A stretch of DNA of 64,000 bases, taken from IMG/VR virus record IMGVR_UViG_3300045988_160053. The stretch is one strand, 5' to 3'. Positions 7,001 to 23,215 of this stretch are shown in pieces. The number at the start of each line of letters is the position of its first letter. The stretch's first letter is position 1. The position numbers were made by a program, and so were the translations under genes. This DNA is from a virus. The notes beneath the pieces are model-generated. The model did no database searches. It was not told the DNA's origin and saw only the letters and a list, made by a program, of their open reading frames with translations.

Positions 7001-8241
7001 AATACGTAGATGGATACTTTGATAGTAAGGATCTGGCCAATATGACACAGGTTGAGCTTTATACTCTTATGAAAATGGGACTTGAAGCAAAATCATTATC
7101 ATTAAAAGATACATTAGATTTCAAACTTGGTGTTGATTATAGCTATGGCGACATTGAAGAGCATGAAGTTATTTCAGCTGCGACTAAATTTGATGGAACA
7201 AACTATATTGACACCGGATTAAAAATCATGGAAAAAGACAGAGACTTTACAATTGCTATTGACTTTGAATTTGATTCAGGAAATAGTGTAAACTCCACTC
7301 TTGCTCAGTGTTTTCAAGGTGATGGTTCAAATGGATTCAGACTTTGGTATTCTCAGGAACCTCGTTTCTCATGGAATACTGATAGTATAACTCCATCTGC
7401 TGGAACAAACCGAGAGATTATTGTATTTCGTCATGAAGCTGGAAGTCAGAAGCTTTATATGTACAATTCAAACATGACTGGGAAAGAAGTATCTTCTACT
7501 ACTCTGAATGCGATCAGGATTCCAGAGCATAGTTCCACTCTCGTATTTGGATGTTCTAAAGCTGACGATGGAGCATATGAAAACTTTGCAAAAGGCACTA
7601 TACATTGGGCTAAAGTCTGGTACGCAGATCTTGGTGAAGAACAATGTATGGATATTGCTGCATGGATCCACGAAGTAATCCCTATGGAAGTGGCTAAGTT
7701 TAAAGGATATTATCTGTCTGACGTTGCTTCAAAGAGAGCTAACATTACATTTGTTGCTTCTAATCTCCTTGGTACAGAAAAACCTTATAATAATAAGAGC
7801 ACAAATGCAGGTGGATGGGCTGATTCTACATTAAATACATGGTTGAATACTCGTATGGTTAAGGCAATCTCTCCTTTATGGAAAGCTCTGATCAAACCTG
7901 TAAAAGTATACTCTTCTATTGGTAATAAATCTAATGACACTTCTGTATCTAATTGCAGATTCTATGTTCCATCTCTGTACGAAGTTGATCCTACTGCTAC
8001 TTCTGAACCATATATTTCTGAAACAAATGCTCCTATTGCTTATTTCACAGATGATGATACCAGAAAGAAAGCAAAACCTTCTATTCCTGCAGAGTATAAA
8101 TCTTATTGGACCAGATCTCCAAATGCTACAGTTGCAAACTGGTTGTATACGGTTAATGAATCTGGTGCAACATATGGATTCTCTTATCCAGGACAGAATT
8201 CTGGAATTTTACTTATGTTCTCAATTTCATGCGAGGGGTAA
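1018..8241 (+). CDS. giant multidomain tail/receptor-binding protein (2407 aa): coiled coil, Ig-like repeats, 2 LamG-like, CotH-like, LRR, 2 Listeria-Bacteroides repeats, DUF6273-like C-terminus
   Basis: AAGGAG RBS; single uninterrupted 7.2 kb ORF. CotH-like motifs: MIDNRAKNVF and FDLWAYDMDTQLG (about 4050-5650). LRR: LETLDIRNCPNLTGSVNLSACENLINLYADG (about 5880-6420). Listeria-Bacteroides repeats: FKVTFINDD...YTFKGWEG...ITAIY and YTVKYVS...FKGWDKSG...INAVY (about 6565-6995). LamG-like: PDCDVLIYRMKAYSASLTDSDI (about 3310-3965) and FDGTNYIDTG...TIHWAKVWYADL (about 7180-7640). C-terminus: GGWADSTLNTWLN...YWTRSPN. Confidence 0.85.
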   Translation: MSFKDSKIAAAANSAMTLSAELAVDTEEYTLCTDGRYEVYTKYQDNAYSTVDNLKNIAVDATQINIMQEENSQYMPFRIPRYWDGMDLMDMLIQIRYESVAEKKGKVATVINVASNNTYIRFGWLIDAAVTANAGDIIFEIMATGVNEKGNNYIWRTRPNGQFTVLQGLNYDGIIEPSEDWYTSFVNMILGHVAEAKQYADEAKASAASINVDDIKADVKTSVMNDLNGTVTESLKAYYTKTEVDTKVKELNTAISGIDSLKNLKVEYDNTTGNLVFKDGTEPIGKPITINSLANLIVEYSVVNGKGSLVFKDGETIIQTVELSSIEPSAEWRAALKQELEAEMDEKDTVISNRIDPLETAKTEIEKNVNANTTAVSEIKTTISNIEKKVESAATKSDEAKNAVDILKQNMTSYDTQFEGINTDITDVKAAIEEIKKNPAAAEYDVTYENSIFTFLKDGEIQKSFKIEGGGGSSSDTTTITIERITNADAIFLLGSKAIIEYSFSSVDNTGDTTGAGTAVWKVGNTIVATNTAAQGNNSFDITEYLNVGANTIRLTITDSFGTLATKTWTVTIVEFKLESTFDDTLLYTNTDVVFRYTPYGNVNKTLHFILDGKDLGTVETQSSGRIMSYNIPKQEHGSHLLKVYMTATINNKEITSNTICKDIICVDPTNRTPIIGCAQQEFTAQQYQATSIKYVVYDPDHNPASVKLSIDGKVQSTLSVNRSAQIWSYKSSTEGKHNLTISCRKVTKILSVNITKLDIDVEPIIANLAFDFNPVGKSNGDTDRLWTDKNNSAITLSVSDNFDWDNGGYQIDASGNQYFCVKAGTTAQINYNLFGKDPKQTGSEFKFVFKTQNVRNASATFLSCIDGTEGSDVGIKMDVHEAYVNTSTDSLYFPYSEEDIIEFEYNINTIDTKDTSATSIIMTYEDGVGGRPLIYDNSHRLHQYSPVPITIGSPDCDVLIYRMKAYSASLTDSDILANFIADARDSDEMIARYNRNQIYNDNNALTPDSVANACPNLRVIKIEAPHFTNDKKDFVKNTSMECIYKNGDPKLDNWKFINCFHAGQGTTSNEYGFAARNIDVICCADGVHQINSKIPLDPNYKTELVLGDGTKYEDGTGKISLTRNSVPNNWWNFKVNVASSNMATNALGQKRFNDFLPYESPAVRRDPKVKNSMEFVNCVIFIKESDPDITTHREFQDTDWHFYSLGNMGDSKKTDITRAYDPEDMKEFCIEISDNTLPNSAFQTGITNQDGTMKYPISKAEWKTGNTAYDALYNNWDGSFEFRYDCCGDSKDGSALTSDEAKKKIRTDNKQIWRDFYEFVITSSDKEFKDGLKDWCIQDAMLYFYLVTLRYSMIDNRAKNVFPHWAKHYITQEEATTMGDKAKYYTIDDDAAALHNGYRFDLWAYDMDTQLGINNSGELSFPYGKEDTDYKEEGNPSSGYVFNAAESVLWCRIRDIFTQELRNMYQSVDSNCWSDSHLINEYEAWQSQFPEELWRIHYERLYLRTYRAGTVRFLNEMMNGRGKYHLRQWERDQHIYMGTKFLHTDVKSDQIMFRCNTPKKVVVKPDYTLKIIPYSDMYISVLYGNSPETTQVRAKAGQEYKITTDLTNMDDTAILIYAASRIEALNDLSACYIHDNDFSKASKLKTLIIGNNTAGYQNTFMTSLNMGNNTLLETLDIRNCPNLTGSVNLSACENLINLYADGTIVTSVLFANHGKIAHASLPSSINTLTLKNLKDLTDLKVAGYDNLQTFVCQNSIVDALAILNAAINTLRTVTITGISWNLDDTTLLLKLAKLTGIDDNGATTEQSVLTGTVHVPVVRQQEYKEFVGSEDEPGIWTDLVLTYDSIITQFKVTFINDDESNTILDIQYVDKGGNAVDPTTREVNPIPIPTKKSTIKLDYTFKGWEGSMTGIFADRTITAIYDSKIREYTVKYVSKGLSLQESTAQYGSYVKYTGDTPVYTAEESAYKYNLFKGWDKSGFVDGNKTINAVYETCEYVDGYFDSKDLANMTQVELYTLMKMGLEAKSLSLKDTLDFKLGVDYSYGDIEEHEVISAATKFDGTNYIDTGLKIMEKDRDFTIAIDFEFDSGNSVNSTLAQCFQGDGSNGFRLWYSQEPRFSWNTDSITPSAGTNREIIVFRHEAGSQKLYMYNSNMTGKEVSSTTLNAIRIPEHSSTLVFGCSKADDGAYENFAKGTIHWAKVWYADLGEEQCMDIAAWIHEVIPMEVAKFKGYYLSDVASKRANITFVASNLLGTEKPYNNKSTNAGGWADSTLNTWLNTRMVKAISPLWKALIKPVKVYSSIGNKSNDTSVSNCRFYVPSLYEVDPTATSEPYISETNAPIAYFTDDDTRKKAKPSIPAEYKSYWTRSPNATVANWLYTVNESGATYGFSYPGQNSGILLMFSISCEG

Positions 8242-9386: not shown

Positions 9387-10457
9387 ATGGCAAAATTACA
9401 GTTCGCTACACTTTCTAATCTTCAGGAGTTTTTAAATCTGCATAACGTACAGATCGACTCTAAAATCAGTGAGGCTGTCAAAAACTCAATTAAAACAGTA
9501 TCTCAGTCAGAAGACGGATACACACTTTATTTCTACACAAAAACTGCTCCAGTAACTATTGATGAAGCAGCATTTACTATTACTATTCCTCAGCCAACAG
9601 GTAAGGCAGATAAAGTAAAAGGAGCTATTTCCGGACATCTTGCAGGTCTTGATGCTAATGGTAATCTGGTAGATTCTGGAAAGGCAGCTACAGATTTCGA
9701 TGCAGCCGGAGCTGCTAACACAGCAAAAACAGAAGTAATGTCTTATGTTGGTACTATTCCTGCTGATGCAAAAGCTAAAGATGTAGTTTCTTATATTAAA
9801 GAAGCTGTAAAAACAGGCACATATGATGATTCTGCTCTAAAATCCAGTGTTGCAGCTAATACCGCAGCAATCAGTACTCTTAATGGAACCGGGGCTGGAT
9901 CCGTAAAGAAAGCTGTTTCTGATGCAGTTGCTCAGATTGTTAACGGTGCCCCAGAAGCGTATGACACGCTGAAGGAAATCTCTGATTGGATTTCTTCTCA
10001 TGCATCTGATGCAGCAGGAATGAATAGTCAGATTACTACCAATAAAGAGGATATCTCTAAGCTGAAAACACTTATCGGTACTCTCCCAAACACAGCAACA
10101 TCTAAAGATATCGTAAGTTATATTGCTGAATATGTTTCTAAGGCTCTTGCAGATTCTGACCTTTCTCAGTATGCGAAAGCTGAAGATCTGACAGCCGCTG
10201 TAGGAAGAATTGATGCTATTGAAAAGAAATTACCTACATTAGAAGCTGCTGATAAAAAGAATACCGAAGATATTACTGCTATTAAAGGCAGAATGGATAC
10301 AGCAGAAGGCAAAATTACTGCTGTAGAAAAAGATCTTGCTACTGAAAAACCGAAGATTGCTAAAAATGCATCTGATATTGCCGCTCTTAAAGGGCTTGTT
10401 GGAGATGGATATGAAGCAATTCCAAGTGCGTCTATCAAAGGTTTATTTACTGCGTAA
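9387..10457 (+). CDS. fibre-like coiled-coil protein
   Basis: AAGGAGG RBS. Ala/Lys/Asp-rich coiled coil with an internal repeat (AKDVVSYIKEAV / SKDIVSYIAEYV). The GAPEAYDTLKEISDWI motif is of the kind seen in phage fibre shafts. Confidence 0.65.
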   Translation: MAKLQFATLSNLQEFLNLHNVQIDSKISEAVKNSIKTVSQSEDGYTLYFYTKTAPVTIDEAAFTITIPQPTGKADKVKGAISGHLAGLDANGNLVDSGKAATDFDAAGAANTAKTEVMSYVGTIPADAKAKDVVSYIKEAVKTGTYDDSALKSSVAANTAAISTLNGTGAGSVKKAVSDAVAQIVNGAPEAYDTLKEISDWISSHASDAAGMNSQITTNKEDISKLKTLIGTLPNTATSKDIVSYIAEYVSKALADSDLSQYAKAEDLTAAVGRIDAIEKKLPTLEAADKKNTEDITAIKGRMDTAEGKITAVEKDLATEKPKIAKNASDIAALKGLVGDGYEAIPSASIKGLFTA

Positions 10458-10543: not shown

Positions 10544-13438
10544 ATGAAAGAACAATTTCTTAATCTCACTGGATTAACAGAACTGGTTGGTTATTTGAAG
10601 ACAAGTATAGCTAATCATAAAGAAATACTTCCATATGCTTCCAATAAGTTATTTCCGTCTGTTGGAGATATAAATACTATTTATATAAATACTGCTACGA
10701 ATACTATTTATCGTTGGGATAGCTCAAGCAAAACTTATATTACTCTAGCAAAAGCCGTAAAGTCTGTTGCTATTTCAGAAGCTACTGAAAACGGAAAAAT
10801 CACACTCACTGTAGATGGTAATAAAACTACTGTTCCTATTCATGGATTAGGATCTGCTGCATATACAAATTCAAGTGCTTACTCTCCTGCCGGGCATACT
10901 CATACAAAAGCTCAGGTAGGGCTTGGCAATGTAGATAATACTGCCGATGCAAATAAGAGTGTAAAACATGCAACTACTGCTGATAGTGCAACTACTGCAG
11001 GAACAGCTACAAATGTATCCGCTGGAGAAGGTACTGCTGATGCAGCTAGACATGTTTGGTTTTCTGACTCTACCACAGAGACAAAGCGAGTATACAGCGA
11101 TAAGTTTAAATATAATCCTGTTACTAATAATCTGACGGTAAATGTTACAGGAAATGCTGCGACTGCAAGTAGTGTCGCATGGGGTAACATTACAGAAAAA
11201 CCTTCTACCTATACTCCTTCTGCGCATAATCATAATGATTCAACTATTACTTCTCTCAACGCAAGTAAACTCTTTGGAACAATTGATATTGCAAGGCTTC
11301 CTCATGGAGCATTAGAACGTCTGGTTATTGTTGAAGATGATACTGCACGTTTTAAACTTACTACTGCTAATATTCAGCTTGGTGATACCGTAAAAGTAAC
11401 TAAGACTGAAAAAATGTATTATGTTGTTGATGAGAGCAAATTATCTTCTGAGGCTGGTTATTCAGTATATACTGCCGGAACTGCTACTTCTGTACCATGG
11501 TCTGGAGTTACTGAAAAGCCTAGCAGCTATCCACCAGCATCTCATAATCATGATGAACGTTATTATACCGAGACTGAGATGAATAGTAAATTAGCTGAAA
11601 AAGCTACAAAAGTACATACGCATACTAAAAGTGAAGTTGGATTAGGCAACGTTGACAATACTGCTGATGCCACAAAAAGTGTTAAATATGCTATTTCTGC
11701 AGGTAGCGCATCATCTGCCGCTGCTCTTACTTCTAATGCTGGATCATCAACTCAGCCAGTATATTTCTCAGGTGGTAAGCCAGTAGCTTGTTCATATACA
11801 CTTGGTAAGTCAGTGCCTGCAGATGCATTATTTACCGATCATACTTATGGAAACATGAAGGGTGCTACTTCTTCTTCCGCCGGAAGTGCTGGTCTTGTTC
11901 CTGCACCTAATATAGGAGAACAATTAAAATTTCTTCGTGCAGATGGTACATGGGTAATTCCTACAAATACGACATATTCTGTAGGTACATCAAGTTACTT
12001 AGGAATAACTAAGCTTTATACTGAAACTGGGTCGGCTACAGATGGTACCATGACTCAAAATGCTATTACTTCTGCTCTTAACGGGAAATCTCCTACCTCT
12101 CATACGCACAATTATGCAGGAAGTTCTAGTTCTGGTGGTGCTGCAAACTCCGCAAATAAACTAGCAACTGCTAGAACCGTATCTGGTGGAACTGACATCA
12201 CGCTAAGTTTTAACTATGATGGTAGTGGTAACTCCTCTGCAAATATCGGATTTTATAGTTCGTCTGCGAGTGTAGGCGACAAAAACAATTATCCATTCCA
12301 TCGATTCGCAAAACTGGATACTATTGCTGCAAGCTATTCAGATAAATCAACCACATTCTTTATCTCACAGGATTATAGTGGTGGTGGCTTCGGTATTGTA
12401 CGAATTGTATTACGTACGAATAACAGCAGCTTAGCATCGACAGTTGAAGTAAAATGGCTGGTTCGTTGTGGCTTAAGTGCGGATAGCGTACAAGTCGGAA
12501 TTTACAATGTTTTTGGAAAGACTTACGCAGATGCCTTCTTTAAAACAGGAGGATCGTATGCTGGAACTTGTTTCCGTACACTTGCAAGTGGTGCGCGTGG
12601 TGGTATTAGCAGAACTTGGGTGCTGGTCAATTCTTCAGAAGTAAGTGGAACCTCTGCAACAGATGCAAAAACATCTACCGAGTGTTATGCTACTATTGCA
12701 GCTGCTGGTACCGCACTTCATAAACAAGCATATAGTAGTATCGTTTCTGGTACTGATAGCGGTACTGCATCTTATGCGAATAGTGCTGGCAGTGCAAATT
12801 CTGTTGCTTGGGGTAATGTTACAGGTAAGCCATCTACATTCGCACCATCATCTCATACTCATAACTATGCAGGATCCTCTTCTGCTGGCGGTGCTGCTAC
12901 ATCAGCAATTAAATTATCCACACCTAGAAAAATTGGTAACGCATCTTTTGATGGTACTGCTGATATTACCTTATCTCAGATGGGACTTAATGTTCCTGTT
13001 GAAATTACAAAAGCTAACTATCTTGCAAAAAAGAAAGCTGGAACTTTAAATGCAAATACCTATTACAATGTTATTGATGAATATGATTCTGCAAATGTTA
13101 TTAACGACTCATCTGTAACAACCAACAGTACATTTTCAAGTACTAAATCGGAAAAAACATATGCAAAGAAAAGTACACTTGTTAATACTACTCTCACGGC
13201 TAGTAAATGGACTGGTTCCTCTGCTCCGTATACATATGTATTACCTGTATCTGGTGCGACTACTTCAAATATAGTAGAAATTAATTATGCTTCTAATGCA
13301 TCATCTCAAGCAATAGAGGCATATCAGAACGCTATGTTAGCAGATGGAGGGCAGACTACAAATCAGATTACTATAAAAGCAACCGAGAAACCAACTGTAG
13401 ATATTCCCATTACTATTGTTATAAGAAATGATTTATAA
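10544..13438 (+). CDS. tail fibre protein (964 aa) with repeated HxH and GLGNVDNTAD motifs
   Basis: Two copies of HTHTK(A/S)(Q/E)VGLGNVDNTADA(N/T)KSVK(H/Y)A. Three copies of W(G/S)(N/G)(I/V)T(E/G)KPS(T/S)(Y/F)xP(S/A)SH(N/T)H. Two copies of SHTHNYAGSSS(S/A)GGAA. KLATARTVSG / KLSTPRKIGNASFDGTADIT are typical fibre repeat motifs. Confidence 0.85.
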   Translation: MKEQFLNLTGLTELVGYLKTSIANHKEILPYASNKLFPSVGDINTIYINTATNTIYRWDSSSKTYITLAKAVKSVAISEATENGKITLTVDGNKTTVPIHGLGSAAYTNSSAYSPAGHTHTKAQVGLGNVDNTADANKSVKHATTADSATTAGTATNVSAGEGTADAARHVWFSDSTTETKRVYSDKFKYNPVTNNLTVNVTGNAATASSVAWGNITEKPSTYTPSAHNHNDSTITSLNASKLFGTIDIARLPHGALERLVIVEDDTARFKLTTANIQLGDTVKVTKTEKMYYVVDESKLSSEAGYSVYTAGTATSVPWSGVTEKPSSYPPASHNHDERYYTETEMNSKLAEKATKVHTHTKSEVGLGNVDNTADATKSVKYAISAGSASSAAALTSNAGSSTQPVYFSGGKPVACSYTLGKSVPADALFTDHTYGNMKGATSSSAGSAGLVPAPNIGEQLKFLRADGTWVIPTNTTYSVGTSSYLGITKLYTETGSATDGTMTQNAITSALNGKSPTSHTHNYAGSSSSGGAANSANKLATARTVSGGTDITLSFNYDGSGNSSANIGFYSSSASVGDKNNYPFHRFAKLDTIAASYSDKSTTFFISQDYSGGGFGIVRIVLRTNNSSLASTVEVKWLVRCGLSADSVQVGIYNVFGKTYADAFFKTGGSYAGTCFRTLASGARGGISRTWVLVNSSEVSGTSATDAKTSTECYATIAAAGTALHKQAYSSIVSGTDSGTASYANSAGSANSVAWGNVTGKPSTFAPSSHTHNYAGSSSAGGAATSAIKLSTPRKIGNASFDGTADITLSQMGLNVPVEITKANYLAKKKAGTLNANTYYNVIDEYDSANVINDSSVTTNSTFSSTKSEKTYAKKSTLVNTTLTASKWTGSSAPYTYVLPVSGATTSNIVEINYASNASSQAIEAYQNAMLADGGQTTNQITIKATEKPTVDIPITIVIRNDL

Positions 13439-13452
13439 AAGGAGGCGATAAC

Positions 13453-13995
13453 ATGGCAATTTACAAAGGTGAACAATGTCTTGCTGGAGTTGGTAAGAAT
13501 GCAACTATTAAAATTGGTACTGCTAAAACAGGTACTTCGGCTGCAGTAACCAATTCTGGTACAGATACAGATGCAATATTAAATTTTACACTGCCCAAAG
13601 GTGATCAGGGAGTTGGTATTTCAAGTGTTATCCCTCATTATCTTGCAAGTTCTAAATCGCAGGGAGTGACCAGATCAACTACTGGATGGGCGACTTCCGC
13701 TCAGGTTATGACATCTACAAACAAATATTTGTGGTGCTATCATGAATTTGTTTTATCAAATAATAATCATCTGTATACAAATGCAACCGTTATAGGTGTT
13801 TATGGAGATAAAGGTGATCCGGGCACAACTGATTACAATGGATTACAGAATAAACCGGTCGTTAATGGAGCTGTAACTGCTTATCAGTCAGATATTATGA
13901 AATCTCAGTTAAGGAATGTGACATTCTCTACTGAAGAACCTAAAATAACTGATGGTAAACCTGGTGATATGTGGGTGGTGTATGGCGATGAGTAA
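13453..13995 (+). CDS. small fibre-associated protein (180 aa), cassette 1 adaptor
   Basis: AAGGAGG RBS. The GDKGDPG and C-terminal STEEPKITDGKPGDMWVVY motifs are paralogous to the C-terminus of the 91-aa ORF at 16634. Confidence 0.65.
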   Translation: MAIYKGEQCLAGVGKNATIKIGTAKTGTSAAVTNSGTDTDAILNFTLPKGDQGVGISSVIPHYLASSKSQGVTRSTTGWATSAQVMTSTNKYLWCYHEFVLSNNNHLYTNATVIGVYGDKGDPGTTDYNGLQNKPVVNGAVTAYQSDIMKSQLRNVTFSTEEPKITDGKPGDMWVVYGDE

Positions 13996-16618
13996 TATTA
14001 AAACTGGTGATATTTTAAACTTTGATTATACTGGTACTGTCCAAACTGTAACACTTCCTAAAGGTACATATAAGTTGGAGTGTTGGGGTGCTCAAGGAGG
14101 ATACAGTTCTTCTAATTCAGGAATAGAGGTTGGTATGGGCGGAAAAGGTGGATACTCCGCTGGAACTATTACACTAAACCAAAAAACACTTATATATATT
14201 TATACTGGTGGAGTTGGTAGCATAAGTGGCAACGGTAAAGCAGATGGTGGATTTCCTAATGGTGGTTCATCTTGGGCTTCCAGCACAAGCGAAGGTGCTG
14301 GTGGTGGCGGTGGATCATCCGATATCCGTATTGGTACCGATTCATTGTATGCTCGTGTTATCGTAGCTGGAGGTGGCGGAGGTGGCGGTGAAGACAACGA
14401 AACTGGCGGATATGGTGGCGGTGAAACTGGCGGAACTTCAGGTTCTGGAACACCTGGTAGTCAAACTGCTCCAAGTGGATATTTTGGAATCGGCGGTCAT
14501 ACTTCCTATGATGGTGGAGGTGGTGGCGGTGGATGGTATGGTGCTGATCCAGCCGGTGGTCAAACAACTCCAGCTACCGGTAGCAGTGGAAGTGACACAT
14601 CTGGCTCTCCTGGAGGATCTGGTTACGTTTATACTTCTGCTACAGCCTCTAATTACCCGTCAGGTTGTTTATTAAACTCTTCTTATTACTTATCTGCTGC
14701 TAAAACCATAGCAGGTAACACTTCTTTTACATCTCCCACAGGTTCATCTGAGACAGGGCACTCTGGGAACGGCTATTGTCGAATTACTGTTATTGAATGC
14801 AAGAATACGGCGCTATATACCAGAATAAACAATTCAATGAAAAAGGCTACTGCTTTTTATTTCAAATTAAATAATAACAAAATGTACGGCGTTGGATCTG
14901 CTAATTATAATGGTTCTGTTATGAATTTTGATTATACTGGTTCGGTTCAAACTGTTACATTGGCTCCTGGTACATATAAACTTGAATGCTGGGGCGCTCA
15001 AGGTGGGAATGGATCATCTAATGGTAATTCTAATATAAATGCAGTTGGTGGTCTTGGTGGATATAGTGTTGGCACCATTACATTAAGTAAAACACAAAAA
15101 GTATATATATATTCTGGTGGAAAAGGACAAACTAAATCAAATACCGGTAGCTATTCTACTGTTAATGGTGGATTTAACGGCGGTGGGTCAAATTATACTT
15201 GTGGTTCCGGAGGTTCTGGTGGCGGTGGATCGGATATAAGGATCGGAACTGATTCATTATATGCAAGAGTAATTGTTGCAGGCGGCGGTTCTGGAACAGG
15301 ATGGACAATTAAAGGTGCCGCTGGCGGTGGAATATTAGGCTTATCAAACTATAATTCATCTTACAATAGTACTCAAACAGCAGGAGGAATAGCTTATACT
15401 TCAGCTTACAATATAATGCCCACAGCTGGCACTTTTGGTATAGGTGGCAATGGTTCCGGTTCTTCAGAAGGCGGTTCTGGCGGTGGAGGCGGCTGGTATG
15501 GAGGTGGCGGAGCCGGATATACGGGCGGTTCTAGTGGTGGATCAGGTTATGTCTACACTTCTGTCACTGCTTCAAATTATCCAAATGGTTGTTTACTTAA
15601 CTCTTCTTATTATCTTTCTAATGCTCAAACTATTGCCGGAGATCAATCGTTCCCTGCTCCTTCTGGTTCTACAGAAACTGGTCATTCTGGTAATGGACAT
15701 GTAAAAATCACTAAATTATCAGATGTAATATATCTTACTCATGCTAAGAACAACATAATGGATTTTAATTATACAGGTTCAGTACAATCTAAAACTCTAA
15801 AACCAGGTACGTATACAATAGAATGCTGGGGTGGCCAAGGAGGAACTTACAGTAGTTACATAGGCGGATACGGTGGTTATTCCAAGGGTACTATTACTCT
15901 TACTGAAGCAACTACTGTTTATATATCTGTTGGTGGGGCTGGATCTTCCTCTTCTACTGCTGCAGGATTCAATGGTGGAGGAACTGGTATTTCTTCTGGT
16001 AGAGGTGGTGGAGGAGCTACAGATGTTCGTATAGGTCAAAATTCTCTATATTCAAGAGTTATCGTAGCCGGAGGTGGCGGCGGAGCTGGTGTAACAAGTG
16101 CCAATGCTAATCCTTGTGGTTGTGGCGGTGGAGAATATGGTGGAGATGGATATTACAATGATACCACTGGTTCTTATACTATAGGTCAAAATAGATGTGG
16201 TGGTAGTGCCTCACAAACTGCAGGTGGCAAAACATGGAGCACGAGCACTCAGGCTACTTTTGGTCAAGGCGGAAATGCTTCAGGCTACTCTTGTGGTGGT
16301 GGCGGAGGCGGCTGGTATGGCGGTGGTGGAGCCTATGACAGTGATTCTGACTCTGATGGACGTTGGGGTGGAGGAGGCTCAGGATATGTTTATACCTCTT
16401 CTACAGCTAAAAATTACCCTAACGGATGTCTACTAAATTCTACTCATTATCTCACAAATGCTCAGACTATCGCAGGAAACACTTCTTTTACTTCTCCTAC
16501 AGGATCAGCAGAAACTGGTCACACAGGCAGTGGATTCTGCAGAATTACAAATTTGAACCCAACACAATATGGATTATACGTAAAAACGAACTCTGGTTGG
16601 AAACACATAGATTTATAA
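13982..16618 (+). CDS. fibre protein with three tandem glycine-rich (ALK/LTK Gly_rich-type) domains
   Basis: The track ORF starts at 13952. ATG at 13982 or 13988 is more likely, giving a 14-nt overlap with the upstream stop. Three modules of about 265 aa (about 14015-14797, 14918-15718, 15755-16555) each contain NFDYTGxxQxxTLxPGTYKLECWGAQGG, GGxGGYSxGTITL, IYIYxGG, GGFNGGG, GGGGSDIRIG, LYARVIVAGGGGG, GGGGGGWYG, GGSGYVYTS, NYPxGCLLNSxYYL and ETGHxGNGxCRIT. Confidence 0.8.
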   Translation: MAMSNIKTGDILNFDYTGTVQTVTLPKGTYKLECWGAQGGYSSSNSGIEVGMGGKGGYSAGTITLNQKTLIYIYTGGVGSISGNGKADGGFPNGGSSWASSTSEGAGGGGGSSDIRIGTDSLYARVIVAGGGGGGGEDNETGGYGGGETGGTSGSGTPGSQTAPSGYFGIGGHTSYDGGGGGGGWYGADPAGGQTTPATGSSGSDTSGSPGGSGYVYTSATASNYPSGCLLNSSYYLSAAKTIAGNTSFTSPTGSSETGHSGNGYCRITVIECKNTALYTRINNSMKKATAFYFKLNNNKMYGVGSANYNGSVMNFDYTGSVQTVTLAPGTYKLECWGAQGGNGSSNGNSNINAVGGLGGYSVGTITLSKTQKVYIYSGGKGQTKSNTGSYSTVNGGFNGGGSNYTCGSGGSGGGGSDIRIGTDSLYARVIVAGGGSGTGWTIKGAAGGGILGLSNYNSSYNSTQTAGGIAYTSAYNIMPTAGTFGIGGNGSGSSEGGSGGGGGWYGGGGAGYTGGSSGGSGYVYTSVTASNYPNGCLLNSSYYLSNAQTIAGDQSFPAPSGSTETGHSGNGHVKITKLSDVIYLTHAKNNIMDFNYTGSVQSKTLKPGTYTIECWGGQGGTYSSYIGGYGGYSKGTITLTEATTVYISVGGAGSSSSTAAGFNGGGTGISSGRGGGGATDVRIGQNSLYSRVIVAGGGGGAGVTSANANPCGCGGGEYGGDGYYNDTTGSYTIGQNRCGGSASQTAGGKTWSTSTQATFGQGGNASGYSCGGGGGGWYGGGGAYDSDSDSDGRWGGGGSGYVYTSSTAKNYPNGCLLNSTHYLTNAQTIAGNTSFTSPTGSAETGHTGSGFCRITNLNPTQYGLYVKTNSGWKHIDL

Positions 16619-16633
16619 AAGGAGGGCTTAACT

Positions 16634-16909
16634 ATGCCGATTATATTTCACGGAACAGGTAGTGGCGGCTCTGCTAAAAAACTAAAAACCGCACGAACTA
16701 TTAATGGTACGAATTTTGATGGTACAGCTAATATTACTACTGCTAATTGGGGAACAACAAGAACCGTTACTGTAGGAAATACAAGTAAATCTGTAAATGG
16801 ATCTGGAAACGTAAGTTGGTCGTTAGCTGAAATAGGTATTCATCTTTCAACAACGGAACCTGCAGCTAGTGACGGAAAAAATGGAGATATTTGGATTACT
16901 TATGAATAA
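16634..16909 (+). CDS. small fibre-associated protein (91 aa), cassette 2 adaptor
   Basis: AAGGAGGG RBS. Carries the fibre repeat motif KKLKTARTINGTNFDGTANITT. The C-terminus STTEPAASDGKNGDIWITYE is paralogous to the end of ORF 13453. Confidence 0.7.
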   Translation: MPIIFHGTGSGGSAKKLKTARTINGTNFDGTANITTANWGTTRTVTVGNTSKSVNGSGNVSWSLAEIGIHLSTTEPAASDGKNGDIWITYE

Positions 16910-16933
16910 AAGACTGAAAGGAAGGTGAGGCTT

Positions 16934-19375
16934 ATGGCTTGTAGTAATGGATGTGGAACTTCTTGTTCTACTGACTGCACTCATTCATCATCTGGTGGAT
17001 GTGGTGGTTCTTGTGGTGGTTCTTGCTCTACTAACTGTACTGGTGGATGTTCTGGATATTGTGATGGAACTTGTAAGGGAGGTTCAGGAAGTACTTGTTC
17101 TGACTGTACTGCCAAATGTGCTAATGACTGTACCGGAGCTTGTACAAATGCTTGTGTAACCGGATGCACTGGCTGTGGGAACAACTGTGATGGAGACTGT
17201 ACAAGCGCCTGTGCTCAAAGGTGCTCTAATGATTGCAATGCTGCATGTACTGCTACTTGTGCTTATGATTGCGAACATACTTGCACTGCTTCTTGTGCCA
17301 ACGACTGCACCAGTTGTGGTGGATCTTGCTCAAGTAATTGCTCAGGAAATTGTGATTCCGGTTGTTATACTGGTTGTTATGGTTGTGATTCTACCTGTTC
17401 TGGTGGTTGTTCTGGCACTTGTAATACTACTTGCACTACCACTTGCGCCAATGACTGCACTGGCGGGTGCAAAGGAACCTGTACAGGTGGATGTGGTGGT
17501 TCTTGTGATAATTCATGCGGCTTTTCTTGTGAAGCTTCATGTGATAACAATTGTACTGCTGTTTGTTCTGTATCTTCTGTGTATGGTGGAAACTCAGAGA
17601 AGAGTGTATTGAATTTTGCTTATACAGGTAAAGCTCAATCTGTAACCCTTGAGCCTGGAAAATATGTTCTTGAATGTTGGGGAGCACAGGGAGGTTATCG
17701 TTCTAATTCTAGTTATGGTGGAAAAGGTGGCTATTCTACAGGGACTTTAACATTGACTCAAAAAACTACTATATACATATATGTCGGTGGATCTGGAAAT
17801 TCTGTTACATCAGCATCAAATTCAATCTATCCCGGAGGTTTCAATGGTGGTGGATATAGATACAATTATAAAGGTGGTGGTGGCGCTACTGATATTCGTA
17901 TTGGAAGTGCTTCTTTATATGCCCGTGTTATCGTTGCAGGTGGCGGTGGTTCTGATGGTAGTCCTAATTATAGTGGTGGGTATGCAGGTGGTGTATCTGG
18001 TACTAGGGGAAATTTTGGATGTGGTTCATATGGATATGGTGGATCTCAAACTGCTTCATATTCATCTTTAAGTGCTATTAATTCACAAGGCACCACAAAT
18101 TCTTCTTCTAACTGTGCTGCTGGTTTTGGTTTCGGTGGTTTTGGATGTTATTACGCTTCAGGTTACGGTGGAGCCGGTGGCGGAGGATGGTACGGTGGAC
18201 AAGGTACTTATCCTGATGGTTCTGGAGATGATGATGGCGGTGGCGGAGGTGGATCTGGTTACGTTTATACTTCCTCTTCTGCTTCTAACTATCCTCAAGG
18301 CTGTCTCCTAAATTCATCTTACTATCTTTCTGATGCTTCTAATTTATCTGGCAATGAATCTTTCAAATCTCCTTCTGGTGCTACAGAAACTGGTCATTCT
18401 GATAATGGCTATTGTAGGATTACCTGTTATGTCAAAAAGAAAACTCTACATTGTAAAATGAACAATGAAATTAAAAAAGCAGCTCCAGTATTTATGAAAA
18501 TGAACAATAAAATTTATGATGCTGGCGCTAATGCTGTAATGGATTTTGCTTATACAGGAACAGCTCAAGCTATATCACTTCCAAGAGGAAAATATATTAT
18601 AGAATGCTGGGGCGCTCAAGGCGGTTCATATAGTAGTTATTATGGTGGTGCTGGAGGATATTCTGTCGGAACCATAACTCTAACTAAAAATTCTACGGAT
18701 TTATATATTTATGTTGGTGGACAACCAGAAGCTACAACTTCAACAGGTGAAACACCTGGTGGATTTAACGGAGGAGGAAAAGGTTGTTCAAGAACTTATA
18801 ATTATAGTAGTTATGGACAAGGTGGCGGCGGTGCAACCGATGTTCGTATAGGAAAAAATGATCTTTATGCTAGAGTTATTGTCGCTGGTGGCGGCGGAGG
18901 TTCATCATCAGAAAATTCGCTTACAACAAAATATGGCGGTGGAACTACTGGTGGTTCTTCTGCTTCTGGATATGGAGCTACACAAACTGCTGCAGGTACA
19001 AATGGTTCGTTTGGTCAAGGTGGTTCTGCAACAACTTCTGGAACTAATTATAATTATGGTTCCGGCGGTGGTGGAGGTGGATGGTATGGTGGTGGTGCAT
19101 GTTCTGATTATAGTGACAGCACTAACTACCGAGGCTATAATGGCGGAGGTTCAGGATATGTTTACACTTCAGCTACTGCTGCTAATTATCCAAGTGGTAA
19201 TTATGTAAATTCTTCTTACTACCTTACCAATGCGCAAACTATAGCAGGAAATCAATCATTTAAATCACCTGATGGAACAAATGAAACAGGCCATACCGGA
19301 AATGGTTTCTGTCGAATCACCCGTAAATCAGGAAAAATATTTGTAAAACAAAACGGTTCATGGATCAAAGTATAA
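16934..19375 (+). CDS. fibre protein: N-terminal CXXX (Cys-every-4th) repeat domain + two glycine-rich domains
   Basis: The track start at 16925 is a GTG. The ATG at 16934 has a GGAAGGTGAGG RBS. Residues 3-211 (16940-17566) hold about 52 Cys, almost all spaced C-x3-C. Gly-rich modules 4 (about 17605-18430) and 5 (about 18536-19327) share all motifs of the preceding protein. Confidence 0.85.
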   Translation: MACSNGCGTSCSTDCTHSSSGGCGGSCGGSCSTNCTGGCSGYCDGTCKGGSGSTCSDCTAKCANDCTGACTNACVTGCTGCGNNCDGDCTSACAQRCSNDCNAACTATCAYDCEHTCTASCANDCTSCGGSCSSNCSGNCDSGCYTGCYGCDSTCSGGCSGTCNTTCTTTCANDCTGGCKGTCTGGCGGSCDNSCGFSCEASCDNNCTAVCSVSSVYGGNSEKSVLNFAYTGKAQSVTLEPGKYVLECWGAQGGYRSNSSYGGKGGYSTGTLTLTQKTTIYIYVGGSGNSVTSASNSIYPGGFNGGGYRYNYKGGGGATDIRIGSASLYARVIVAGGGGSDGSPNYSGGYAGGVSGTRGNFGCGSYGYGGSQTASYSSLSAINSQGTTNSSSNCAAGFGFGGFGCYYASGYGGAGGGGWYGGQGTYPDGSGDDDGGGGGGSGYVYTSSSASNYPQGCLLNSSYYLSDASNLSGNESFKSPSGATETGHSDNGYCRITCYVKKKTLHCKMNNEIKKAAPVFMKMNNKIYDAGANAVMDFAYTGTAQAISLPRGKYIIECWGAQGGSYSSYYGGAGGYSVGTITLTKNSTDLYIYVGGQPEATTSTGETPGGFNGGGKGCSRTYNYSSYGQGGGGATDVRIGKNDLYARVIVAGGGGGSSSENSLTTKYGGGTTGGSSASGYGATQTAAGTNGSFGQGGSATTSGTNYNYGSGGGGGGWYGGGACSDYSDSTNYRGYNGGGSGYVYTSATAANYPSGNYVNSSYYLTNAQTIAGNQSFKSPDGTNETGHTGNGFCRITRKSGKIFVKQNGSWIKV

Positions 19376-19413
19376 CACTTTGGTCCATATTTAAATTACG
19401 AGGAGGAATTGTT

Positions 19414-19812
19414 ATGAAACTTATTTTTAAAGACGGACAAGAATTAGTTATTACTCGTGCTAACGATACATATTCATATGAAGGATATAAAGATGGGTTA
19501 GGAAATGATATGAACAAAAATATTGTAGCTACTATTTCTATCTTCAATTCTGATAAATCTTTAAACACTATTAAGGATATGATTACTGATGACAATAGAA
19601 CAGGTTTTAAAATTATTTATGGGAATACCCAGAAAGATTATACTGGAATGAAAATTGAAAGTATTTCAGAAGAAATCTCCAATGAAAGAAGTGTTATTAA
19701 TATCTCATTAGCTACAGATAAAACCATAGCTCCTACTGAGACCACTGGAACAACAACAGAAAAAACTAAAGAAGAAACTAAAGAAAAAACGGAAACAGCT
19801 TCTGATAAATAA
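19414..19812 (+). CDS. hypothetical protein (132 aa) with T/E/K-rich tail
   Basis: The track ORF begins at 19360, but the ATG at 19414 is preceded by an AGGAGG RBS (19401-19406). No recognisable domain. Confidence 0.6.
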   Translation: MKLIFKDGQELVITRANDTYSYEGYKDGLGNDMNKNIVATISIFNSDKSLNTIKDMITDDNRTGFKIIYGNTQKDYTGMKIESISEEISNERSVINISLATDKTIAPTETTGTTTEKTKEETKEKTETASDK

Positions 19813-19837: not shown

Positions 19838-20176
19838 ATGAGAAAAATAATCGTAAAGGTTGATAAAGAAAAAGCTACAGAGCTTGAAAGAGTTAATTTT
19901 GAATTAAACTTCGTAAAAGACATTGTACAGAGAGTTATTGAATCACATCCAAGCGATTTAGAACTCATCAATGGAGATACTCTTATGTCTTACAATAAAC
20001 GTGGTGCAGAATTACAGAGAAAGTATGCTGCTCTTGCAAATGAGATGGAAAAGGAATACATCCCAGAATACCTCGAAGGTCATCAGTATAGTTGGATTAT
20101 TCCAAATAATTCTGATGAAATGACTATTACTATTAAATGTAATTGTGAGATTCCAGAATTAGAGGGAATAGCATGA
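19838..20176 (+). CDS. small protein translationally coupled to the radical SAM maturase (candidate maturase partner / peptide-recognition protein)
   Basis: 112 aa. Its TGA overlaps the ATG of the radical SAM gene (ATGA at 20173-20176). Function is inferred from the coupling only. Confidence 0.65.
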   Translation: MRKIIVKVDKEKATELERVNFELNFVKDIVQRVIESHPSDLELINGDTLMSYNKRGAELQRKYAALANEMEKEYIPEYLEGHQYSWIIPNNSDEMTITIKCNCEIPELEGIA

Positions 20177-21504
20177 AAAGAACAGAACAATATTCGGACC
20201 AGATAGCTAGACTTTATCCATCTAAGAAGGTAAAAACCGATGACGGACAAAGAATATTAACACAGAGTATCACTTTTCAAGTAACTGATGATTGCAACCT
20301 TGCGTGTCTATATTGTTACCAAGGACACAAAGGAAAAAATCGAATGTCGTTTGAAACAGCTAAGAAATTCTTTGATTTAGTTGTATCAGGTGAAAAAGGT
20401 TTTAAATCTTATATCAATCCAGAGAAATCTCCTGGATTGGTTGTAGATTTCATTGGAGGAGAACCCTTTCTTGAGATAGAGCTTATAGATCAAATCTGTA
20501 CTTATATTATGGATAAACTCATAGAGTTGGATCATCCTTGGGCCATGAAAACTATGTTCTCTATTTGTTCAAATGGTGTTTTATACAGGGACGAAAAAGT
20601 ACAAGCATTTCTTCGTAAATGGGCCAATAGATTATCTTTCTCAGTTACTATTGATGGGAATAAAGAATTACATGATTCCTGCCGAGTTTTTCCAGATGGT
20701 GGTCCAAGTTATGACATAGCTGTCGATGCTGCGTCAGATTGGATGAAACGTGGAAATCATATGGGAAGCAAGATCACAATTGCTCCGGGCAATATCAGCT
20801 TTCTATACGATGCTATTAAGCATATGGTCGATCTTGGATATGATGAAATCAATGCCAATTGTGTATATGAAAAGGGTTGGACACCTGTACATGCAACTGT
20901 TCTTTATGATCAAATGAAACGTATATCTGATTATTTCTTGGAACAGAATTTTGATTTTGAACGTGATTTCTTCTGTTCCCTTTATAATGAAGACTTCTTT
21001 CAGCCTAAAGATCCTGATGATTTACAAAGTTGGTGTGGAGGCGTTGGTAATTCAATGATTGCTTGCGATCCTCAAGGTCGCATATTTCCATGTATCAGAT
21101 ATATGGAATCTTCTCTTAATGGAGAGCAAGAACCGTACTCTATTGGTGATGTAGATAATGGTATAGGATGCACAGAATGTTATAAATGCAGAATTAATTG
21201 TATGGCAAAAATAGATAGAAGGACACAGAGTACAGATGAATGTTTCTATTGTCCTATAGCTGCAGGATGTTCTAATTGTTCTGGTTATGATTATCAAGTG
21301 AATGGTACTCCTGACTCAAAAGCTACTTATATATGTGTTATGCATAAAGCTCGTGCTCTTGGGAATCTGTATTTCTGGAATAAATATTATAGAAAAAATA
21401 ATATGAGTAAGCGAATGAAAAACTATGTGCCAGATGAATGGGCGCTTGAGATTATTTCTGAATCAGAACTTAATATGTTGAAAGAACTTGAAAGAGAGGA
21501 TTAA
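20173..21504 (+). CDS. radical SAM / SPASM-domain peptide(protein)-modifying maturase (anSME-like)
   Basis: CX3CX2C cluster motif in VTDDCNLACLYCYQG (about 20293-20316). GGEPFL SAM-binding motif. Cys-rich C-terminal SPASM-like region: WCGGVGNSMIACDPQGRIFPCIRY ... CTECYKCRINC ... ECFYCPIAAGCSNCSGYDY. Confidence 0.9.
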   Translation: MKRTEQYSDQIARLYPSKKVKTDDGQRILTQSITFQVTDDCNLACLYCYQGHKGKNRMSFETAKKFFDLVVSGEKGFKSYINPEKSPGLVVDFIGGEPFLEIELIDQICTYIMDKLIELDHPWAMKTMFSICSNGVLYRDEKVQAFLRKWANRLSFSVTIDGNKELHDSCRVFPDGGPSYDIAVDAASDWMKRGNHMGSKITIAPGNISFLYDAIKHMVDLGYDEINANCVYEKGWTPVHATVLYDQMKRISDYFLEQNFDFERDFFCSLYNEDFFQPKDPDDLQSWCGGVGNSMIACDPQGRIFPCIRYMESSLNGEQEPYSIGDVDNGIGCTECYKCRINCMAKIDRRTQSTDECFYCPIAAGCSNCSGYDYQVNGTPDSKATYICVMHKARALGNLYFWNKYYRKNNMSKRMKNYVPDEWALEIISESELNMLKELERED

Positions 21505-21519
21505 AAGCCTCTCTTTTTT
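21493..21519 (+). terminator. rho-independent terminator overlapping the radical SAM stop codon
   Basis: AGAGAGG-attaaaag-CCTCTCT followed by TTTTT. The stop codon (21502-21504) lies in the loop. Confidence 0.7.
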
Positions 21520-21544
21520 ATTGACTAAAAGGAGGCTTGATATT

Positions 21545-23215
21545 ATGGCAGAAATTAAAGGAATTGATGTTTCCAGATGGAATGGAAACATCGACTGGAA
21601 AACTGTTGCTAGTTATGGAATGGGCTTCGCTATCCTAAGAATTACAGAAAAAGGAAATATTGTTGATAGCACATTCGAACCTAATTATAAAGGCTGTATT
21701 GAGAATAAGATTCCTGTTGGAGTCTATAAATACAGCTATGCTACTACTATTGCTCAGATTGAAGATGAAGCAAATGTAGTTATTAAAACATTGAATAAAA
21801 GAAAACTGGATTATCCAGTGTTTCTTGATATAGAGGATAAATGTCAGGAGAATTTATCTGACAGTTTAATGATGAAAATGATCGAAGCTTTTAGAGCTAT
21901 TATTGTCAAAGCTGGATATAAATTTGGTATTTACTGTGGTTATTCTTGGTATCAGAACCAGTTACCAAAAGGTGCTAAAAAGTACGATTGCTGGGTTGCT
22001 CGATATCCTAATAATGATACCGGTGAATTACAGGAAAGATTAAGAGTTCCTGCTTCTACTGGTGTTATTGGATGGCAATATTCTAGTAAGGCAACCATTC
22101 CTGGTATTCCAACAAAAACCGATCGAAGTGTATTCTATAAAGACTATTCTAAATCTTCTACTACTTCTACAAACTCTCTCAAACCAACAACTACACAAGG
22201 AAGTGATACTATGAATAAAGATAAAGCTATTGATGCTCTTATTGCTTGCGCTGAAAATGAGGTTGGATATTTAGAGAAGAAATCTAATTCTCAGCTTGAT
22301 GATAAAACTGCAAATGCAGGTTACAATAACTACACTAAATACTGGAGAGACGTATATCCTCAGTATCAGGCACAGGCTTGGTGTGCAGCGTTTGTGAGTT
22401 GGTGCATGATGAAAACATTCGGTCTTGATGTAGCTAAAAAACTCCTTAAACATTGGCCTTATGTATACTGTCCTACTCTTGGAAATCTCTTCACAAAGTA
22501 TGCAAATCCACAGCGAGGAGACATTGTGATCTTCTATCGTAACGGTACTTTTGCACATACAGGAATTGTCACAAAAGTTGAAGGTGATAAGTTTTATACT
22601 ATTGAAGGGAATACTTCAGCTGGCTCTACTGTTGTTCCAAATGGTGGAGGAGTTTTTGCTAAATCTTATTACAATTCTAATCTTCCAGGCACTAAATTCT
22701 GTCGTCCAGACTATTCTATTGTCACATCTATTTTAACATCTACTGCACCTGTACAGCCATCTTATACTGCATGGGTAGGTTCTTGTACAGCTAATGGAAC
22801 AGATGTATTCTCAGACGCTACAGGAGCTTCTAAGCTAAGTACATATCCTAAACTTAATGCAGGTAATCTTGTGGATATCATCGGTGAATCTGGTACAAGA
22901 TATCAGGTTCGTATCGCTGCAAAATATATAGGGTATGTAGAAAAATCTAACATTAAAAATCCTAATACTCCTGCTGCAACAACTACAAAAAAATATCCAT
23001 TTGTAGGAAAAGTAACTGCAAGTAAATTGAATGTTCGCAAAAAACCCGGTACTGAACATCCATTACTTCCAGAGTATCCGATGTTAAATAAAGACAATCT
23101 TGTTAATGTCCTCGGAGTTACAAAAGATACTAAAGGTAACAGATGGTACAAAGTATCAATTACTAAAAATGAATATGTTGGCTATGTATCAGCCAAATAT
23201 ATTACTAAGGCATAA
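21545..23215 (+). CDS. endolysin: GH25 muramidase + CHAP peptidase/amidase + 2 SH3b wall-binding domains
   Basis: AGGAGG RBS before the ATG at 21545 (track start 21488 is upstream). GH25: GIDVSRWNGNIDW, FLDIED, WVARY, GWQYS. CHAP: QAWCAAFVSWC ... FAHTGIV ... EGNTS. Two SH3b-like repeats: LNAGNLVDIIGESGTRYQV and NLVNVLGVTKDTKGNRWYKV. Confidence 0.9.
   Translation: MAEIKGIDVSRWNGNIDWKTVASYGMGFAILRITEKGNIVDSTFEPNYKGCIENKIPVGVYKYSYATTIAQIEDEANVVIKTLNKRKLDYPVFLDIEDKCQENLSDSLMMKMIEAFRAIIVKAGYKFGIYCGYSWYQNQLPKGAKKYDCWVARYPNNDTGELQERLRVPASTGVIGWQYSSKATIPGIPTKTDRSVFYKDYSKSSTTSTNSLKPTTTQGSDTMNKDKAIDALIACAENEVGYLEKKSNSQLDDKTANAGYNNYTKYWRDVYPQYQAQAWCAAFVSWCMMKTFGLDVAKKLLKHWPYVYCPTLGNLFTKYANPQRGDIVIFYRNGTFAHTGIVTKVEGDKFYTIEGNTSAGSTVVPNGGGVFAKSYYNSNLPGTKFCRPDYSIVTSILTSTAPVQPSYTAWVGSCTANGTDVFSDATGASKLSTYPKLNAGNLVDIIGESGTRYQVRIAAKYIGYVEKSNIKNPNTPAATTTKKYPFVGKVTASKLNVRKKPGTEHPLLPEYPMLNKDNLVNVLGVTKDTKGNRWYKVSITKNEYVGYVSAKYITKA

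Follow-up and report, generated by a model that had tools for sequence, protein, structure and literature searches.

Radical S-adenosylmethionine (SAM) enzymes of the curated family TIGR04115, "radical SAM peptide maturase, CXXX-repeat target family", are paired with the target family TIGR04117, "Cys-Xaa-Xaa-Xaa repeat radical SAM target protein", and the database entries assign no chemistry, function or phage context to the pair. A locus of this kind is found in the 64,000-nucleotide viral sequence IMGVR_UViG_3300045988_160053 of IMG/VR (the whole stretch analysed is called the window). According to the list of open reading frames (ORFs) and their translations, a fibre-protein gene on the + strand (16934..19375) encodes 813 residues, an N-terminal CXXX repeat followed by two glycine-rich domains, and three genes 3′ of it, on the same strand, lies a 443-residue radical SAM/SPASM enzyme (20173..21504) of TIGR04115. 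We infer that this enzyme acts on the repeat, that the product is a thioether and that the repeat serves as a stalk in the virion. Taken together, it is on balance probable that the linked enzyme takes the repeat as its substrate and turns it into a stalk of the fibre with covalent cross-links, probably thioethers. The locus resembles the TIGR04115/TIGR04117 system in that its enzyme passes the curated cut-off and a neighbouring target carries tandem Cys-X-X-X units; it differs in that the target is the N-terminal domain of an 813-residue phage protein, not a small stand-alone peptide. As the pairing is already captured by these two curated models, the kind of system is known.

Cysteine thioethers are made in proteins as well as in peptides. 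QhpD makes Cys-Asp/Glu thioethers in the gamma subunit of quinohemoprotein amine dehydrogenase. The QhpD/QhpC pair is similar to the present locus, with a SPASM radical SAM enzyme installing several Cys thioethers in a protein subunit rather than in a secreted peptide, but in QhpC the cross-links number only three, a periodic repeat is absent and there is no link to phages. The closest characterised relatives of the window enzyme are the ranthipeptide maturases PapB (freyrasin), CteB (thermocellin, 5WGG) and Tte1186, with which it shares the CX3CX2C motif, the seven-Cys SPASM domain and a three-ligand auxiliary cluster 1 (AC1). PapB forms six cross-links in repeated CX3D motifs, hence a periodic Cys motif is modified several times, and in PapB and Tte1186 the substrate Cys or SeCys binds the AC1 iron ahead of thioether formation (PMC10177961). 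In contrast to these enzymes, the window enzyme has no N-terminal recognition element for ribosomally synthesised peptides with post-translational modifications (RiPPs), and its presumed target offers 52 sites rather than one to six. Ranthipeptide substrates are leader-plus-core peptides with a fixed acceptor, whereas the presumed substrate in the window is a large structural protein without one. In the HxsA/HxsB/HxsC His-Xaa-Ser system, the radical SAM target is likewise built from short tandem motifs; an in silico prediction preceded the discovery of a function by over ten years, and the system has five HxS repeats with a single +8 Da modification, the target being a periplasmic anti-phage effector of bacterial origin (PMC13128918). 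The eukaryotic/HGT cysteine-rich repeat CysRRep (Daugavet et al.) is unrelated, with a spacing of Cx6-9Cx5-7Cx8-11Cx7-8CC compared with C-x3-C in the window. In the searchable literature, no publication was found on the chemistry, function or phage association of CXXX/TIGR04115, and searches combining ranthipeptide with bacteriophage, or tail fibre with thioether, returned nothing on the CXXX system.

The CXXX repeat domain

The repeat domain, the presumed substrate region of the radical SAM enzyme, extends from Cys3 to Cys211 (16940..17566, + strand) and was characterised by counts and statistics. Its 209 residues include 52 Cys. Successive Cys are separated by a step of four residues 45 times, by a step of three residues four times (after Cys55, Cys78, Cys125 and Cys148) and by a step of eight residues twice. 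This agrees exactly with an earlier reading of the letters alone (the sequence-only reading), which had reported about 52 Cys in C-x3-C spacing with four C-x2-C and two eight-residue steps. The other positions are mostly G (37), T (30), S (29), N (16), A (15) and D (14), and hydrophobic residues are nearly nil. Cys accounts for 24.8% of the repeat and 2.0% of the remainder of the 813-residue protein; with the Cys frequency elsewhere in the protein as background, a binomial model gives a tail probability of 1e-40 for 52 or more Cys among 209 residues. In 200,000 shuffles that preserved composition, gaps of exactly four averaged 5.4 and never exceeded 17, whereas the repeat has 45. No second CXXX run, and no N-domain protein of the type described below for the relatives, was found elsewhere in the window.

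The period is carried by the codons, as the sequence-only reading had proposed when it set codon-level periodicity against a DNA tandem repeat. Tandem Repeats Finder reports only five short arrays over the repeat DNA (2.2–2.6 copies each) and 50 of the 52 in-phase 12-mers are unique; these two-copy fragments and unique 12-mers rule out a DNA tandem repeat or slippage artefact. An assembly error, which would have undone the sequence-only reading, is likewise ruled out, since dozens of independent IMG/VR contigs of different metagenomic origin encode this protein segment as well. Among 14 DNA variants of the repeat with the same length, 27 codon changes are synonymous and 14 non-synonymous, and all six changes in Cys codons (6/6) exchange TGT and TGC. 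Of the six frames over the repeat, five contain stop codons; the long ORFs in frame +1 (145 residues) and reverse frame −1 (67 residues) are hydrophobic or Pro/Gln-rich and are typical shadows of the coding frame. In divergent homologues, whose linked enzymes are 60–81% identical, 42–52 alignment columns pair Cys with Cys and zero to four pair Cys with another residue, with an identity of 21–30% at the X positions; the alignment is Cys-driven, yet every sequence holds the period independently. The number of repeats shifts in frame: viral relatives have 45, 51, 52, 55 or 64 Cys and genome loci reach 95, which is the behaviour expected of a stalk or spacer. The repeat is real and translated, and its Cys residues are under selection.

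The reading frame is open from 16925 and the 813 residues are counted from the ATG at 16934; the protein starts with MACSNGCGTSCSTDCTHSSSGGC. By direct reading, a Shine-Dalgarno-like sequence, GGAAGGTGAGG (16920..16930, + strand), is located 4–14 nucleotides 5′ of this ATG, a position that indicates that translation begins right at the repeat (MACSNGC...). The first Met inside the protein is not reached ahead of the glycine-rich domain.

No Pfam family in the local copy matches the repeat or the ~110-residue N-terminal domain of its relatives. Most homologues of the CXXX domain (P0122–P0179) carry the precomputed label PF27846, a family newer than that copy. The AlphaFold2 model of the unmodified domain, calculated with a 25-sequence alignment, has a mean predicted local distance difference test score (pLDDT) of 44.5, with low-confidence helices at residues 55–116. 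At this score the model is unusable and gives no confident autonomous fold, which is consistent with the earlier remark that a normal globular fold is implausible.

Linkage of the repeat to a radical SAM enzyme

By profile match, the enzyme encoded at 20173–21504 belongs to TIGR04115: it scores 520 bits against a cut-off of 350 and covers the whole profile (1–359/359). The repeat itself scores 20.4 bits with TIGR04117, under the cut-off of 50. TIGR04117 is a 98-position "paralog" model, and the window protein would therefore be a CXXX target outside that paralogue set. Relatives were collected in two scans. In IMG/VR, the enzyme matched 191 viral stretches, of which 80 loci were kept; a genome scan with one genome per species gave 51 true relatives at an enzyme identity of 38–68%. 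An ORF with a CXXX run is present upstream of the enzyme at 76 of the 80 viral loci, and a run lies beside the enzyme at 47 of the 51 bacterial and archaeal genome loci (123 of 131 for both sets). The four viral loci without a run are contigs that end 1–2 kb upstream of the enzyme; short or truncated contigs among the run-less loci include L004, L013, L018, L028, L114 and L130. The run-less genome loci are the short contigs L114 and L130, L091 with only 2.2 kb upstream, and L125, which has full 8-kb flanks on both sides and no CXXX run. CXXX ORFs, the enzyme and a partner protein of about 110 residues co-occur almost without exception. Co-occurrence with a radical SAM gene, which the sequence-only reading had raised, is thus found, the gene being the TIGR04115 enzyme three genes downstream.

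This linkage bears on a metal-based explanation, in which a metal or iron-sulfur thiolate ladder holds the fibre chains together and the radical SAM enzyme is incidental or has another target. Metal ladders are known in phage fibres, the tip of T4 gp37 having an iron-binding His ladder, and a quarter of the repeat residues are Cys with small flexible spacers. A ladder of this type leaves the near-obligate linkage to the enzyme and the 110-residue partner, maintained over enzyme identities of 38–100%, unexplained; in addition, C-x3-C is not a classical chelating spacing and no Pfam metal-binding family is matched. We regard it as very improbable.

The partner in the window is a 112-residue protein, the presumed accessory protein of the CXXX system (19838..20176, + strand), whose stop codon overlaps the start of the radical SAM gene (ATGA). 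It is 43% identical to a 109-residue protein in the matching position of prophage L075, and 32 of the 51 genome loci have a detectable partner. When 1.84 billion representative proteins were searched with a profile, 219 clusters were returned, nearly all of them stand-alone proteins of 100–120 residues with a few tandem duplicates, and in none of the 219 is the partner fused to the enzyme. A CxC motif at the C-terminus is invariant. The AlphaFold2 model (pLDDT 89.7) consists of a strand, a long helical hairpin and a β-hairpin; Foldseek against the PDB gave nothing below E = 0.9 and no match to a RiPP recognition element (RRE). A role of the partner as a stand-alone RRE is unsupported, given the missing PDB match below E = 0.9 and that it is never fused to the enzyme.

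The hosts of the genome loci are Blautia, Lachnospiraceae, Oscillospiraceae, Eubacterium, Christensenella, Anaerolentibacter and Desnuesiella, and cultured strains with relatives are Anaerolentibacter hominis CSJ-1, Eubacterium pyruvativorans i6 and Desnuesiella massiliensis mt10. Every identified host is an anaerobe, a lifestyle that fits both an oxygen-sensitive enzyme and the uselessness of disulfides. Single metagenome-assembled genomes (MAGs) with a CXXX cassette are labelled Methanobrevibacter (an archaeon; L117), Treponemataceae (L099) and Raoultibacter (L093); provided that these contigs were binned correctly, the range of the system or of its phages extends far outside Clostridia. Unmodified Cys residues could instead form a disulfide ladder after lysis, as in Cys-rich antifreeze β-helices or twin CX3C helical hairpins. 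Periodic Cys would line one face of a helix, and the AlphaFold2 model does place low-confidence helices at residues 55–116, but the G/S/T/N composition is anti-helical and the model confidence too low to be used. All identified hosts are strict anaerobes of reducing habitats, and the linked radical SAM enzyme would be left without a role. We consider the disulfide ladder the least probable of the explanations discussed here. The sequence-only reading had offered a cross-linked rod, a metal/thiolate ladder and a disulfide ladder as candidate roles; the first is now favoured and both ladders are disfavoured. That reading was made without knowledge of the curated database families that already hold the pairing.

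The cysteine pattern of the enzyme offers a lead on the type of chemistry. C41, C45 and C48 form the CX3CX2C motif of the radical SAM cluster, and these three together with SPASM Cys 288, 307, 357, 360, 366, 369 and 388 are invariant in 12 homologues of 61–100% identity. Among solved structures, CteB (5WGG, E = 4e-19) is the nearest; its residue 91 is where the alignment begins, so the enzyme lacks the N-terminal RRE of CteB. C288, C307 and C369 correspond to C344, C362 and C413, the three ligands of CteB AC1, as a sequence correspondence only, and an extra Cys in this region, C298, is not conserved. The remaining SPASM Cys correspond by position to C400, C403, C409 and C432 of the four-ligand auxiliary cluster 2 (AC2) of CteB (AC1 and AC2 ligands as listed in PMC10177961). 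Judged by this alignment, the auxiliary-cluster Cys pattern is CteB/PapB-like. In close relatives (L029:6807-9206) an intein of ~356 residues interrupts the CX3CX2C motif (...CNLACSY/CLSGDT...AVHN/CYQGHK), at a position where the third Fe-S ligand is also the +1 Cys of the C-extein. Many enzyme homologues have precomputed intein, Hint or LAGLIDADG Pfam domains; the window enzyme has no intein.

The substrate side was examined in 1,963 non-redundant CXXX units. X1 is mainly S/T/G, X2 mainly G and X3 G/S/T, and Pro is essentially absent. Asp accounts for 4–6% and Thr for 11–19% at each X position, and neither these two nor Glu is conserved at any of them. Of 585 CXX units, 75% have Gly as the second residue. 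As the repeat has no conserved acceptor, the known ranthipeptide regiochemistry is not simply transferable, and the Cys-X3-Asp link of the PapB type would not be general in the repeat because i+4 is occupied by Cys. Since the X positions vary and are rich in Gly, Ser and Thr, chemistry that is indifferent to the side chain fits better, for example attack on the α-carbon as in sactipeptides, and sactionine-like chemistry is the option most compatible with variable X residues. The enzyme scores 40.9 bits against a cut-off of 720 with the RumMC-family model, and other sactisynthase models are weaker. After TIGR04115 its best NCBIfam match is PapB (166.5 bits); PapB, the SCIFF maturase (99), QhpD (TIGR03906, 95.6 against 453), CcpM and CefB are all far under the respective cut-offs, and HxsB is matched weakly (66 bits). 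An assignment as anaerobic sulfatase maturase (anSME) was rejected: TIGR03942 scores 41.5 against 349, and the C/S-x-P/A-x-R motif is absent.

The enzyme might modify the repeat in another way, by conversion of Cys to formylglycine or a dehydro-amino acid, by epimerisation or by another Cys-centred change, with the properties of the stalk following from that modification. The X positions have no conserved acceptor, SPASM enzymes catalyse many reactions, and the scan includes weak matches to anaerobic sulfatase maturases, cyclophane-forming enzymes and others. The top characterised relatives, however, are thioether formers (166.5 bits for PapB and 99 for the SCIFF maturase, compared with 41.5 for anSME). 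The C-x-[PA]-x-R motif of anSME substrates is missing, with Pro at ~0% and Arg at no more than 1.4% of X positions, and the AC1 Cys pattern is the three-ligand CteB type that binds a substrate thiolate. Chemistry other than thioether formation therefore appears unlikely, and thioether cross-linking remains the preferred reading.

Relatives of the cassette and its tail-module setting

The CXXX module occurs in four architectures. In architecture A, that of the window, the repeat is N-terminal to two glycine-rich domains; it is found at L001–L040 wherever the upstream region is present, on contigs of up to 177 kb and with enzymes at least 81% identical to that of the window. In architecture B (L041–L080, L082) there are two proteins. 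The first has a non-repeat domain of ~110 residues followed by "CRGxCTGLC" and 11–17 Cys; the second is separate, starts with "MACSKGCGTSC" and is nearly all repeat, with 50–64 Cys. The start of the window protein, MACSNGCGTSCSTDCTHSSSGGC, aligns to the start of this stand-alone protein, including a conserved eight-residue step. Architecture C is a single protein with the 110-residue domain and up to 95 Cys (L097), and in architecture D the repeat is joined to other C-terminal domains. An example of the last is a 920-residue protein of a Bacillota MAG (L129:10008-12767), in which an N-terminal run of 91 Cys is combined with two PG_binding_1 domains, a weakly matched fn3 domain and, at the C-terminus, a membrane segment of glycine-zipper type, and which adjoins a TIGR04115-like enzyme. 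A conserved non-repeat domain of ~100 residues ("...YDYSV.P..G..I..EH...") is N- or C-terminal to the repeat in various homologues and is absent from the window. One 186-residue protein (P0121) joins a subtilase-like N-terminus to a fragment 95% identical to the window repeat; it is encoded on a 1.7-kb contig and is probably chimeric, not a real architecture.

These architectures can be compared with those of RiPP precursors, for which the repeat would be modified, cleaved from its carrier and released as a bacteriocin-like or signalling peptide with no structural role. The family name "peptide maturase" and the many relatives in which the CXXX protein is separate, with 190–270 residues, are in line with such a precursor. 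The window cassette, however, encodes neither a protease nor an exporter, Pfam gives no match for its two small proteins, and repeats reach 200–350 residues, far past known RiPP cores. The module is also fused N- or C-terminally to varied large domains, and the cassette lies inside baseplate and fibre blocks. A released peptide is thus distinctly improbable, and we return to a structural role for the repeat.

The CXXX cassette lies in a tail-module context. In L075, an IMG/VR viral contig with an isolate-like sample identifier, and in the near-identical Blautia wexlerae L082, the genes immediately before it belong to the baseplate wedge (phrog_120, phrog_6), the baseplate (phrog_1160) and the tail collar fibre (phrog_1780), and further large proteins in fibre position come after the cassette. 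In L045 the next large protein has GDSL esterase and Big_2 domains. A PHROG scan of 124 neighbour proteins from 38 genome loci, a coarse census with five to nine members per family, gave only endolysin, amidase, tail-fibre, tail and minor-tail functions for all annotated families among the top 25. A 425-residue ORF with a reverse-transcriptase-like YMDD motif is located just 3′ of a large fibre-position protein in L075 (L075:12829-14106) and may belong to a diversity-generating retroelement acting on the tail fibre.

In the window, the C-terminal 590 residues of the protein are filled by two ALK/LTK-type glycine-rich domains (Pfam PF12810; residues ~227–498 and 537–797; 17612..19372, + strand), whose starts are placed by the motifs NFAYTG and DFAYTG. 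The PF12810 (ALK_LTK_GRD) score is 325.9 bits against a gathering threshold of 24.5 (E = 2.8e-97) in two stretches, the best at 236–498. PHROG matches are phrog_1589, phrog_5811 and phrog_7388 at residues 224–507 and phrog_6085 on the repeat. The glycine-rich domains are presumed to be the distal, receptor-side part of the fibre. The same family is known from ALK/LTK; it covers the domains attached to the repeat and not the repeat itself. Animal ALK/LTK have no known CXXX repeat, and a glycine-rich domain is present at 0 of the 51 CXXX genome loci. PF12810 is best known from animal receptor kinases, and two adjacent proteins of this phage (13952–16618 and 16934–19375) carry three and two copies. 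The first is an 888-residue paralogue with three glycine-rich domains and no CXXX repeat (13952..16618, + strand; PF12810, 459 bits, 3 stretches).

Directly upstream of the fibre gene is a 91-residue protein (16634..16909, + strand) with similarity to tail-fibre repeats (several tail-fibre families, among them phrog_21722, "long tail fiber protein distal subunit", E = 3e-12). Tail, tail-fibre and minor-tail PHROG matches upstream are at 9387–10457, 10544–13438, 13453–13995 and 16634–16909. A 2,407-residue ORF at the start of the structural block (1018–8241) has PHROG matches only to phrog_14959 and phrog_24896, both families of unknown function. Between the fibre gene and the maturase cassette, a 150-residue protein (19360..19812, + strand) is kept in some related phages, with a tblastn match of E = 3e-18 to a 101-residue protein of L045; it has no Pfam, NCBIfam, PHROG or PADLOC match. 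Downstream follows an endolysin with GH25, CHAP and SH3 domains (21488..23215, + strand; PF01183, PF05257, PF08239; PHROG endolysin families), a type that indicates a Gram-positive host and marks the end of the structural module. As listed from TTG, the endolysin ORF shares its first 17 nucleotides (21488–21504) with the end of the radical SAM gene, so the cassette is tightly packed between fibre gene and lysis gene. With tail-fibre-like neighbours on one side and an endolysin on the other, the gene context is consistent with the designation as a fibre protein made in the sequence-only reading, although no annotated fibre family is matched. The GenBank phages of INPHARED include no close DNA relative of the window; the only match is 74% identical and spans 6% of the query. 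The enzyme is also encoded, at 34–36% identity, on two contigs of uncultured faecal phages. Defence-system libraries gave only generic radical SAM similarity at the level of viperin.

Proposed maturation of the fibre and its meaning

In the proposed maturation, the N-terminal 210 residues with the CXXX module would be the substrate of the phage radical SAM/SPASM enzyme (20173–21504), acting with the 112-residue partner (19838–20176) in the anaerobic host cytoplasm ahead of virion assembly. The thiolate of a substrate Cys would bind the open iron site of AC1, the 5′-deoxyadenosyl radical would take a hydrogen atom from a nearby residue, and a C–S (thioether) bond would form. Repetition along the chain would give a ladder of small covalent rings, and the product would be a stiff stalk with redox-independent bonds, probably resistant to proteases. 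This stalk would link the two distal glycine-rich domains with the fibre end nearest the baseplate, having become fused in this phage lineage to the glycine-rich fibre protein. Disulfides would not hold in a reducing cytoplasm or in the anoxic gut, and a redox-independent stalk would suit a phage that is assembled in the former and acts in the latter.

Several observations weigh against this proposal. The 1,963 units have no conserved acceptor: the residue at i+4 is Cys and not Asp, and X1–X3 are variable. The enzyme scores below the cut-offs of the characterised thioether-forming families, with 166.5 bits against 340 for PapB (NF047865) and 99.1 against 425 for the SCIFF maturase (TIGR03974). 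A recognition element was not identified, as the enzyme has no RRE of the CteB type and the partner no RRE-like fold match. The fusion in L129 places the CXXX module on a cell-wall-binding protein, so the module is not fibre-specific. Incorporation of the CXXX domain into the virion is read from gene order only, and PHROGs label both phrog_6085, the CXXX family, and the glycine-rich domain families as "unknown function". The literature search found no biochemical work on any TIGR04115 member.

More tentatively, and with somewhat less than an even expectation of being correct, the whole TIGR04115 family can be viewed as a maturation system for phage tail fibres, not of the bacteriocin RiPP type, in which the enzyme and a 110-residue partner with a new fold install tens of cross-links (up to ~50–95 per chain) in a virion protein. 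Apart from the pairing itself, several aspects appear to be new: that many gut phages and prophages have the system in their tail-fibre modules, that the repeat is fused to a large fibre protein, that a 110-residue partner of unmatched fold is dedicated to the system and that one chain has as many as 52 sites. The CXXX system consists of three small genes and a 225-residue substrate and looks directly testable; CANDCTGACTNAC is an example of a minimal CXXX peptide with three to four units. For protein engineering, an enzyme that can staple a C-x3 motif dozens of times with tolerance of its sequence would be of obvious appeal.

Some of the clusters in gut Clostridia that are called "RiPP" or "ranthipeptide" may be tail modules of prophages, and a function could be assigned to a database family that has so far been left as a prediction. 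If this view of the family is true, the fibre would be the first known case of a virion protein whose maturation depends on radical SAM chemistry, and among the most densely cross-linked natural polypeptides. It would provide phages that infect anaerobes, in which disulfides cannot form or survive, with an oxygen-independent substitute for them. Cross-linking of the repeat would mean that radical SAM chemistry builds a virus particle, and not small antibiotics only.

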